From contig JAUWGH010000007.1 in NCBI GenBank assembly GCA_030606485.1, positions 1 to 32,000 on the forward strand: a stretch of 32,000 nt of DNA, written 5' to 3'. The stretch is from Promethearchaeota archaeon. Lineage in GTDB: Archaea; Asgardarchaeota; Lokiarchaeia; Sigyniarchaeales; SOKP01. This document shows positions 1-10,027 of the stretch, piece by piece. The position numbers and the translations under genes are program-made. How positions within the stretch are numbered: position 1 is the first letter of the stretch; the number at the start of each line of letters is the position of its first letter. Below the pieces are notes generated by a model. It saw only the letters and a program-made list of their open reading frames with translations. It did not search any database and was not told the origin of the DNA.

Positions 1-410
<410 letters not shown>

Positions 411-536: not shown

Positions 537-674
537 GGGCCTGTAGATCAGTGGAAGATCATTGGGTTCGGCCTCGAACCCAAATTTATGCTTGACTTGC
601 ACGTCAACTTGATTGATTTTCATTCAAGAGATCAAGAGTTCAAGAGGTCACGGGTTCAATTCCCGTCAGGTCCA
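537..674 (+). tRNA. tRNA-Ala(UGC) with two introns (561-589 at position 25/26; 602-638 at 37/38)
   Basis: Removing both introns gives GGGCCTG TA GATC AGTGGAA GATC G CTTGA CT TGC AT TCAAG AGGTC ACGGG TTCAATT CCCGT CAGGTCC A, a complete cloverleaf. The 37/38 intron has a clean BHB (CTTG/CAAG helix, bulges CA|C and AG|T). A T-run follows the gene. Confidence 0.95.
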
Positions 675-1363: not shown

Positions 1364-2616
1364 TCATATTGCTGAAAAAATTTTTATCACATCATTATCT
1401 TTCAAAATATAATTCTCTCCTAATTTCATTTTCGATTTTACCTCCATCCCGTAAATGAAATGTTTTGCTAAGTCAGAATGGATTTTTTCTCTAATAAATT
1501 CCCGTATTTTTATTCCCTTTCTAACTAAAAAAACATCAGGGAGTATGTTTCCATCTTTATCTGTTAAAGTATTTAGATTTGCAACAGGATATACAGTAAT
1601 TTGGTTTAATATAGAAAATACTGCGTAATTTAATGTTTTTTGAACTCCTGTACCTCCAATTCCTTGTAATAATTTTTTCCTAATCTTTTCTAGGGTTTCC
1701 AATTCATTTTTTTTTAGATTATTTTTTTTTATTATATTAAAATCAGTATCACCAGGCATATATTTGATAATACCTTCCTTATTATATCTCCTAAGAATAA
1801 ATTCTGCTAAGGCACTGCATGGAATAATTTTCTTCTTATATTTTTTCTTTAATTCATCCAGTTTTTTTATACCAATATCTTTATCAATTTTATTCGCAAT
1901 TATTATTATCGGTTTAGAGATTTCTCTTAGATTTTTTGAAAAAATATTTAGTTCTGCTTTATCCCATTCAGATATTGACTTTCCATCTAAATTAGATTTT
2001 TCAATTGATTTTTCTATATCATCCTTTTTAATTGATAATCCAGATAATCTTTGATATAATGCTTCAATAAGCTCACTCCTCCCCTTAATAACTCTATTTG
2101 AAAATTTTTTCCAATCCTCTCTTTCAATAATTCCTTTAAACCATAAATTTATTTCATCTTCTAAAAACATTATATCTTCATATGGATCATGGGATCCTAA
2201 CTCTACTGTATTTCCATTCGCATCCAAAGATCCAGTAATATCTATAATATGTAATAGTACATCTGCTTGACTTAAATCACTCAAAAACCTATTCCCAAGC
2301 CCCTTCCCCTCATGAGCTCCTGGGACTAAACCAGCTACATCCAATAATTGAATAGGAATAAAACGAAATTGTTCTATACATTTTGAATTCTTAGGATTAT
2401 CCTTAACATTTAATTCTTTGCATACGCACAGCTTTTTAACATAACCTATTCCTTTATTAGGATCGATAGTTGTAAAGGGATAATCTCCAACTTTAGCATG
2501 AGTTAAACAAGCACTATTTAGGAATGTACTTTTACCGGAAGAAGGTTTAGGGTTAAATTAGAATATTTCTTAATATAACTTTTCTAATATAATTTCCCTA
2601 CCACACCGATTAGCAC
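1364..2616 (-). CDS. ychF: YchF/Obg-family P-loop NTPase, intron-containing; exons 2616-2594 and 2546-1364, 401 aa after splicing
   Basis: The frame of the 1364..2344 ORF stays open upstream to 2546. With exon 1 it reads MLIGVVGKPSSGKST (G1), YPFTTIDPN (G2), LLDVAGLVPGAHEGKGLGNRFLSDLSQAD (G3) and NKID (G4), with a TGS-like C-terminus. Spliced length is 1206 nt = 402 codons. GTG start at 2616. Confidence 0.93.
2547..2593 (-). other. 47-nt BHB-type intron in ychF mRNA
   Basis: Central helix AGGG(2599-2596)/CCCT(2552-2549), each followed by AAA. Inner 11-bp helix TTATATTAGAA/TTCTAATTTAA with one mismatch. AA|A cleavage at both bulges joins GGG AA + A CCT = G-K-P. The intron carries an in-frame TAG and is not a multiple of 3. 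Confidence 0.88.
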
Positions 2617-2641
2617 ATATTTTCACTTATAATTAAATTTG

Positions 2642-9564: not shown

Positions 9565-9740
9565 ATTTTTCAAATTATAATTATAATCCTATGATATTAT
9601 ATAGAAAATAATTTTTTCATTAAAATATTAATATTATGATAATTTTTGATTTGTTTTTTTTATTTTAAGAAAAAACCTCATAAATAAATTTTAATTTCAT
9701 TATTAATATTTTTCTATAAATTAATTAAAAAAAATTTTTT

Positions 9741-9834
9741 GCTCTCGTAGTGTAGCTCGGCCAAACTTTAAAACTGAGGCTAAGCATGCTAGGCTTTCAC
9801 CCTGGTGACCCGGGTTCGAATCCCGGCGAGAGCA
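9741..9834 (+). tRNA. tRNA-Glu(UUC) with a 19-nt D-loop intron (9765-9783)
   Basis: GCTCTCG/CGAGAGC acceptor stem, CTAGG CT TTC AC CCTGG anticodon arm, TTCGAAT T-loop. Relaxed BHB: GGCC/GGCT helix, bulges AA|A and AA|G. Confidence 0.95.
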
Positions 9835-10027
9835 TAAAAATATTATTCTTTAATCCTTATTATTTAAAAAAATCGAAAATTATTGCAGCTTTTGGTTACT
9901 TACAAATGTTAGTGATATAATTTTGATTTTATCAAAGAACAATGAAGATTCTTTATTTAAAGTTATAATTAAATTTAAAAATTATTTTCTATCATTGAAT
10001 TTTATAACCAAATCTCTCTCTCTTTTT

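Follow-up and report, generated by a model that had tools for sequence, protein, structure and literature searches.

The closest described counterpart of the element reported here is the short bulge-helix-bulge (BHB) intron that interrupts the coding sequence of cbf5 in crenarchaea (Desulfurococcales and Sulfolobales; Watanabe 2002, Yoshinari 2006, Yokobori 2009 (PMC2738675)). Splicing has been confirmed for no other gene, though introns have been predicted in further protein genes (PMC2738675), and Schwarz et al. 2020 likewise gave cbf5 as the sole coding case while adding an intron in a 5' untranslated region (UTR) of Haloferax (PMC7714728). The present analysis concerns a 47-nt insert within the P-loop codons of a gene for a YchF-related putative GTPase, located on the minus strand of an Asgard archaeal contig (JAUWGH010000007.1, positions 1 to 32,000; this 32,000-nucleotide stretch is referred to as the window, and its positions are used as coordinates throughout). 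A preliminary description of the window had proposed that the insert is a spliced intron, and comparison with over 100 related genomes now makes it highly probable that these 47 nt are a BHB pre-mRNA intron, cut by the tRNA-splicing endonuclease EndA and joined by RtcB, in the only YchF-related GTPase gene of the genome. As in cbf5, the intron falls in a catalytic-motif codon near the 5' end. The two cases also share a BHB motif that is often relaxed, the need for a heteromeric EndA, a cut between bulge residues 2 and 3, and a patchy distribution with gain and loss among relatives. They differ in the host gene and lineage (a YchF-related GTPase in Asgard/Promethearchaeota), in the position of the intron at codon 8 behind a 23-nt mini-exon, and in the presence of two introns at sites 5 nt apart in one P-loop in different genera. 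In addition, the splicing of cbf5 was demonstrated via cDNA and in vitro cleavage, whereas here we infer it.

Other systems share some of these properties. The 5' UTR intron of Haloferax volcanii HVO_1309 is likewise an EndA substrate in an mRNA, outside tRNA and rRNA, and its removal appears to matter for expression; it differs in lying in an untranslated leader that leaves the reading frame uninterrupted, in belonging to a euryarchaeon with an alpha'2 enzyme, and in being experimentally confirmed (PMC7714728). The non-canonical tRNA introns of Asgard archaea and Thermoproteales have the same motif, a size of tens of nucleotides, AT-rich hairpins, the same presumed enzymes, and a history of repeated gains at BHB-capable sites (PMC5829648; 10.64898/2026.10.13.758758). 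The host RNA in the present case is a messenger, and the accessible text of those papers mentions no protein-coding hosts. In the cytoplasmic splicing of eukaryotic HAC1/XBP1, the mRNA is cut by IRE1 and ligated by RtcB or Trl1. There too, two stem-loops mark where a protein endonuclease severs the mRNA, a tRNA ligase rejoins it, and the reading frame changes. That case (listed in PMC13149111) involves IRE1 rather than EndA/TSEN, another recognition motif and a proven regulatory role, and the analogy is one of mechanism alone. The full-text literature searched, whose coverage excludes most subscription journals, yielded no account of a BHB intron in an Asgard protein gene or a YchF-related GTPase; this agrees with the preliminary description, which knew of no account of such an intron in ychF or in Asgard mRNAs.

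The second exon of the interrupted gene matches NCBIfam NF007171 (YchF-related putative GTPase; PRK09602) with 489 bits against a cut-off of 387. The match spans profile positions 10–396 of 397, and the first nine positions correspond to the part missing from this exon. Pfam domains MMR_HSR1, YGR210-like_G4 and TGS were also identified in it. The YchF/OLA1 equivalog TIGR00092 was not reached (72.5 bits vs a cut-off of 279), and "ychF", the name first given to the gene, is therefore a loose label; by its profile scores the gene belongs to a YchF-related paralogue family, so that its assignment as ychF-type holds with NF007171, not TIGR00092, as the precise family. The source genome (G000) is 3.75 Mb in 13 contigs with 29% GC and is rated 100% complete, and no second NF007171 gene above the cut-off was found in it, leaving a single copy. 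The nearest named relatives are metagenome-assembled genomes (MAGs) of Promethearchaeota/Promethearchaeia, and the cultured Promethearchaeum syntrophicum MK-D1 belongs to the same order, which bears out the initial view of the host as Asgard-like.

The anatomy of the gene and the positions of the structural elements are given in Table 1. The mini-exon reads GTG (2616) CTA ATC GGT GTG GTA GGG AA, and exon 2 opens with A CCT TCT TCC GGT AAA AGT. Read without splicing, the frame encodes VLIGVVGKLY and then stops, a product of 10 codons. The exon-2 frame stays open over 2557–1364, where the earliest ATG, GTG or TTG codon is the TTG at 2344; the version of the gene in the open reading frame (ORF) list accordingly lacks 75 N-terminal residues, as had been pointed out in the preliminary description. 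Removal of the 47 nt would join ...GGUAGGGAA to ACCUUCUUCC (window 2594 to 2546), giving GGG AAA CCU at the junction, a predicted junction-spanning peptide LIGVVGKPSSGK, and a protein of 7 + 1 + 393 = 401 aa with the N-terminus MLIGVVGKPSSGKST. As it stands in the genome, the P-loop has its first Gly and the Lys codon set apart from the rest of the motif, and GxxxxGK[ST] is intact (GKPSSGKST, G-KPSS-GKS-T) solely once the 47 nt are taken out. The spliced MLIGVVGKPSSGKST matches the MLIGIVGKPSSGKST of MK-D1 and 99 uninterrupted orthologues residue by residue, with the same length. The insert, its BHB geometry, the 401-aa product and the stop after 10 codons were all reproduced to the base in this analysis.

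Table 1. Features of the interrupted GTPase gene, of the site-B intron, and of other split genes in the source genome (G000). Coordinates without a contig prefix are window positions.
Feature	Location	Strand	Remarks
Shine-Dalgarno-like GTGA	2623..2626	-	6 nt 5' of mini-exon start; weak support
Exon 1 (23-nt mini-exon)	2594..2616	-	GTG start, L I G V V G codons, AA of Lys codon
47-nt BHB intron (predicted)	2547..2593	-	AT-rich insert inside P-loop codons
Exon 2	1364..2546	-	Third base of Lys codon, 393 codons (PSSGKST...SAI) and TGA 1364-1366
In-frame TAG	2584..2586	-	Terminates unspliced translation after 10 codons
Exon-exon helix AUCGG	2606..2610	-	Pairs with CCGGU 2534-2538; 100% paired in 7 sequences
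Outer helix 5' strand GGU, relaxed	2600..2602	-	Pairs with ACC 2544-2546 given a 2-nt 3' bulge
Central helix 5' strand AGGG (exonic)	2596..2599	-	Pairs with CCCU 2549-2552; one G-C to G-U change
5' bulge AAA	2593..2595	-	Predicted cut 2594/2593; invariant in 7 sequences
Inner helix 5' arm TTATATTAGAA	2582..2592	-	83% of cells paired; three compensatory pairs
Intron loop, 18 nt	2564..2581	-	Sequence and length vary among relatives
Inner helix 3' arm TTCTAATTTAA	2553..2563	-	Partner of 2582-2592
Central helix 3' strand CCCT (intronic)	2549..2552	-	Pairs with AGGG 2596-2599
3' bulge AAA	2546..2548	-	Predicted cut 2547/2546; minimum free energy fold pairs A2546, leaving a 2-nt bulge
Site-B intron of G009 (predicted)	L023:1980-2010	-	Counterparts L124 (G052), L123 (G053), L122 (G055), L125 (G153)
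Methylmalonyl-CoA mutase (MCM) B12-binding small subunit, 32-nt insert	G000 C12:126028-126059 (= L120:629-660)	-	Removal restores KPGI/DGHWRG
Archaeal DnaG primase, 32-nt insert	G000 C2:142590-142621 (= L121:291-322)	+	Removal restores GAIFGQ/TEGLL
MoxR-like ATPase, 31-nt BHB insert	G000 C1:76174-76204	+	Splits Walker A GEPG/TGKT
GH38 glycosidase, 30-nt BHB insert	G000 C7:23173-23202	+	Splits HWDRE/WY

Signals for the initiation of the mini-exon were also considered. The Shine-Dalgarno-like GTGA was compared with the 16S rRNA 3' end present within the window, GGATCACCTCC; relatives have GAGG or AGGTGG where the window has GTGA, and their Shine-Dalgarno-like motifs lie 5–8 nt ahead of the start. 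This 16S rRNA 3' end occupies window positions 1–408. A TATA-like TTAAATATAAA at 2652–2642 was noticed and left unused, such strings being ubiquitous in AT-rich DNA.

The predicted secondary structure of the insert is conserved among its carriers. The inner helix of 11 bp is made up of 10 pairs and one U-U mismatch. The minimum free energy fold recovers the central and inner helices together with a short GGU/ACC outer helix, a 2-nt 3' bulge and the AUCGG/CCGGU pairing. In seven distinct sequences, 91% of the cells of the proposed pairing are paired, compared to 25–57% when the partners are slid, and the central helix is 100% paired. Compensatory change was identified at three pairs (five cells); the BHB covariation that the preliminary description had suggested looking for is therefore present in this intron type, with a modest score. 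The pairing between AUCGG and CCGGU is not independent evidence, as both strands are coding. EndA cleavage falls between bulge residues 2 and 3 (PMC2738675). Both bulges of the 47-nt intron read AAA, which makes the exact cut position within them ambiguous, and it is the intron at a second site, described below, that resolves the cut. Two observations are beyond chance: canonical excision yields exact collinearity with the uninterrupted orthologues, and carriers have kept the insert and its structure along with both exons.

For a census across the order, the N-terminal region was read in every genome where the search detected the gene (109 in all), together with extra TACK and Asgard contigs. 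In 99 of these genomes it is uninterrupted, with G-x-[IV]-G followed directly by K-P-S-S-G-K. Five genomes, which make up the entire genus, carry the window-type intron at the same site inside the Lys codon (site A), at protein identities down to 72%, and two further metagenome contigs carry the site-A insert at 78% and 71% protein identity. The remaining five genomes carry a different insert of 31–32 nt at site B, which lies 5 nt downstream in the same P-loop and splits the Ser codon behind its first base; four of these are from one genus (G009, G052, G053 and G055) and the fifth, G153, is from another. The comparison of presence and absence among relatives that had been proposed at the outset thus gives 99 uninterrupted genes, five with site A and five with site B.

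The site-B insert of G009 folds as a textbook hBHBh' structure (z = −6.6; none of 200 shuffles folded equally well): its outer helix measures 9 bp, AGCC pairs with GGCU, the bulges read AAG and AGG, and a tetraloop closes the stem of 10 bp. A cut after the second bulge nucleotide would give CCA AGU UCU GGC AAG, which encodes KPSSGK, and the site-B cut gives KPSSGKST. Pairing of the central helix is complete (100%) in all five site-B sequences, where one position is variously G-C, G-U or A-U, and five compensatory pairs were found; the observed values were reached by 5 of 500 shuffles. The protein tree groups the site-A carriers in a single clade (100/99), which points to one gain, at the base of the genus. 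An intron-less pair, G020 and G054, is nested among the carriers of the site-B genus, which indicates a precise loss inside that genus. As a separate observation, G052 and G053 are sisters by their exon-2 proteins (100/99), but the mini-exon and intron of G052 resemble those of G009, and those of G053 resemble G055 (L124/L204 of G052 vs L123/L205 of G053, L023 of G009). This mismatch could reflect recombination beside the intron, exchange of the intron, or a chimeric MAG.

The enzymes that the proposed splicing calls for are encoded by the host. Two EndA paralogues (PF01974; G000 C10:66737-67333 and C10:670250-670867) were identified, one of which has the catalytic Tyr/His/Lys and matches the catalytic repeat, while the other lacks the His and matches beta-subunit models. 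RtcB is present (579 bits; C6:118950-120257). A heteromeric arrangement of EndA has been reported for Asgard and TACK archaea, and the Asgard (alpha-beta)2 enzyme with its L1 loop is of the broad-specificity type (Kaneta et al., PMC5829648). The relaxed motif of the 47-nt intron would need an EndA of broad specificity, and by analogy with the enzymes described in PMC5829648 the host EndA would be expected to take such motifs. In the proposed pathway, the transcript would fold so that the exonic AGGG pairs with the intronic CCCU, leaving AAA bulges of 3 nt on both strands and a stem of 11 bp within the intron. The heteromeric alpha-beta EndA would then cleave after bulge nucleotide 2 on both sides, and RtcB would ligate the exons to give GGG AAA CCU and the 401-aa protein with an intact P-loop. 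The unspliced mRNA would yield a 10-residue peptide alone, and the GTPase would be made solely from spliced mRNA. Introns are also frequent in the tRNA genes of this genome, 24 of 38 being predicted by ARAGORN to contain one. Within the window, the Rfam tRNA at 537–674 (+) measures 138 nt for 71 model positions, about 67 nt extra, and it probably holds more than one intron; ARAGORN also calls a 96-nt tRNA-Ala at 9740–9835 (+).

At least four further protein genes of the same genome appear to be split in a similar way (Table 1). The insert in the MCM small subunit gene is a strict BHB, with GCAU/AUGC, bulges AGA and UCA, a 10-bp stem and a 5-bp outer helix. It interrupts the cobalamin-binding motif DxHxxG within the Asp codon, after codon 16, and the exon 2 that follows spans TIGR00640 positions 14–128 of 132. 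The insert in the DnaG gene has a GGGC/GCCU central helix and AAA bulges, with an inner helix of just 4 bp, and its exon 2 spans PRK04031 positions 27–418 of 419. The inserts in the MoxR-like ATPase and GH38 glycosidase genes, which were identified by reading of the sequence alone, both have an AAA 5' bulge. Of the five mRNA introns checked in the genome, four have an AAA 5' bulge, and all five sit in the first ~50 codons (codons 8, 16, ~44, ~50 and ~17). This clustering towards the 5' end may be a real bias or a bias of detection.

Several points weigh against reading the 47 nt as a spliced intron. Its outer helix is weak, consisting of GGU/ACC with a 2-nt 3' bulge or, with a 3-nt bulge, of a G-C and a G-U pair past a mismatch; measured against the flanks of a strict hBHBh' motif this is a relaxed form. 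The single-sequence fold is unexceptional (z = −1.58; 16 of 200 shuffles fold equally well). The covariation at site A is modest, its score being reached by 26 of 500 shuffles, and in most site-A members the inner stem contains one or two U-U mismatches. The cutting and joining of the RNA are themselves deduced from sequence. A run search for this stretch found no RNA data set. Finally, a genome-wide BHB scan did not single out introns. A strict core (a 4-bp helix, 3-nt bulges and at least 5 contiguous inner pairs) returned 326,152 BHB-like candidates on both strands of this 29% GC genome, and when BHB cores were combined with ORF fusion (flanks of at least 40 or 60 codons), no excess was found over decoys shifted by 1–2 nt. 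On its own, the BHB motif thus lacks predictive power in this AT-rich genome. The scan also missed the intron of the window, which has a mismatch at inner pair 4, and cannot see mini-exons, so it is unable to count mRNA introns.

The same protein could also be produced without any cutting of RNA, by translational bypassing of the type found in phage T4 gene 60. Ribosomes would hop from AAA 2595–2593 to AAA 2548–2546 over the 47 nt, and this AAA-to-AAA hop would equally yield the 401 aa, so that the product does not distinguish it from splicing. The take-off and landing codons are matched, are 47 nt apart and are invariant in all seven sequences, and a hairpin lies between them. No stop codon directly follows the take-off site, however, which is followed by UUA UAU UAG in the window and CUA AUU UAG in G004. 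It is the geometry of a BHB that has been conserved, with its helix of 4 bp, its two bulges on opposing strands and compensatory changes in the stem. Matched codons are also not a feature of the site-B, MCM, MoxR and GH38 inserts, which obey the same cut rule: the borders at site B are AA/G at one end and AG/G, UA/G, AC/G or AA/G at the other, and those of the MCM (AG/A, UC/A), MoxR (AA/A, AG/C) and GH38 (AA/A, AU/U) inserts are likewise unmatched. We know of no case of translational bypassing in archaea. Bypassing is on this evidence very improbable.

Splicing of the 47 nt must also be weighed against a broken gene, which would have no product or would give an N-truncated protein without a P-loop from an internal start. 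Unspliced translation ends after 10 codons, and gene callers do report shortened products: the public gene calls in genus-like relatives are N-truncated, at 326–353 aa vs 401–405 aa in uninterrupted relatives, and these calls (P0003, P0004, P0007, P0008, P0010 and P0013) lose the P-loop. A near-identical 401-aa protein is absent from the best 120 matches in a large protein collection, and the relatives at least 71% identical among those 120 matches are all N-truncated calls derived from DNA, which are uninformative on splicing. Against this, the insert has been retained since the common ancestor of lineages that are now 71–78% identical in protein, and every carrier has an open exon 2 of 394 codons. 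The ratio of nonsynonymous to synonymous substitution rates (dN/dS) over the whole of exon 2 is 0.11–0.26 among carriers, equal to that of uninterrupted genes, and such purifying selection speaks against the decay of the gene that the preliminary description had raised as an objection. In the first 67 codons of exon 2, which contain the remainder of the P-loop and the G2 region and lie ahead of any internal start, dN/dS is 0.05–0.20. These 67 codons are without any in-frame start in G000 and G002, and the internal start candidates of other carriers are scattered over differing places. Since purifying selection acts on codons that have no start of their own, they are translated, with initiation upstream of the insert. 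The mini-exon is constrained as well, as its differences between species are all synonymous (CTA/CTG, ATC/ATT, GGT/GGA and GTG/GTA) and its first codon across relatives is GTG, ATG or TTG. The genome also offers no other copy to substitute for the gene, a second intact one having been named as a further objection to the proposed intron. A broken gene is thus scarcely to be expected here, and the shortened calls indicate instead that annotation pipelines systematically miss such introns.

An assembly or binning artefact, or a mobile element resembling a miniature inverted-repeat transposable element, is least credible of all. The insert is short and AT-rich and contains an inverted repeat, and it comes from a metagenome-assembled genome. 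The doubt about its assembly, voiced in the preliminary description, is removed by Logan contigs from four runs of four independent studies (cold seep, subsurface and two marine sediments), which span 2300–2800 at 18–62x with 0–1 differences and without a gap or joint, and which agree on the site. The site is occupied, in diverged sequence, in five genomes and two metagenome contigs, and the 47 nt occur just once in the genome, where the longest other matches are 18–25 nt with mismatches. The remaining candidates were rejected outright: ribosomal frameshifting (with frame 0 ending at TAG 2586–2584 and TAA 2560–2558 closing the exon-2 frame, two shifts and ~15 extra P-loop residues would be required), read-through or recoding of the TAG (47 is not divisible by 3), a group I/II intron or intein (for which the insert is much too short, besides being out of frame), and copying from another genomic locus (the genome contains nothing similar at any other place).

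With splicing as the favored explanation, the role of the intron can be considered. Repeated gains of tRNA introns at BHB-capable sites in Asgard archaea have been concluded in a recent preprint (10.64898/2026.10.13.758758), and the 47-nt intron is most simply regarded as a tolerated insertion at a spliceable site, with no demonstrated function as a regulator. A regulatory link between tRNA maturation and translation, as put forward in the preliminary description, is possible and at present unsupported, and a tolerated insertion fits the data equally well. A broader and quite speculative idea, which we regard as unlikely, is that P-loop and catalytic-motif codons near the 5' ends of Asgard genes are recurrent landing sites for tRNA-type introns and are used as a gate on expression. 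Behind this idea are the two unrelated P-loop introns 5 nt apart in different genera, the split Walker A motif of the MoxR-like ATPase, and the location of all five introns in the first ~50 codons. If it were true, unspliced transcripts would give abortive peptides of ~10 residues, and the output of NTPases and other enzymes would be tied to EndA/RtcB activity in the closest prokaryotic relatives of eukaryotes.

Splicing at this locus would extend EndA processing of coding sequences, which in the literature searched is confined to cbf5, to Asgard archaea and to an Obg-family GTPase. The extension has unusually strong comparative support, from two independent introns in one motif, a gain at the base of a genus, a precise loss, and selection on a 23-nt mini-exon. 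Truncated gene calls such as those seen here (326–353 vs 401 aa) bias motif-based predictions of function and counts of pseudogenes for Asgard MAGs. That one genome has four other split genes besides the interrupted YchF-related locus suggests that, in these relatives of eukaryotes, genes are regularly expressed by way of mRNA splicing with the tRNA machinery.

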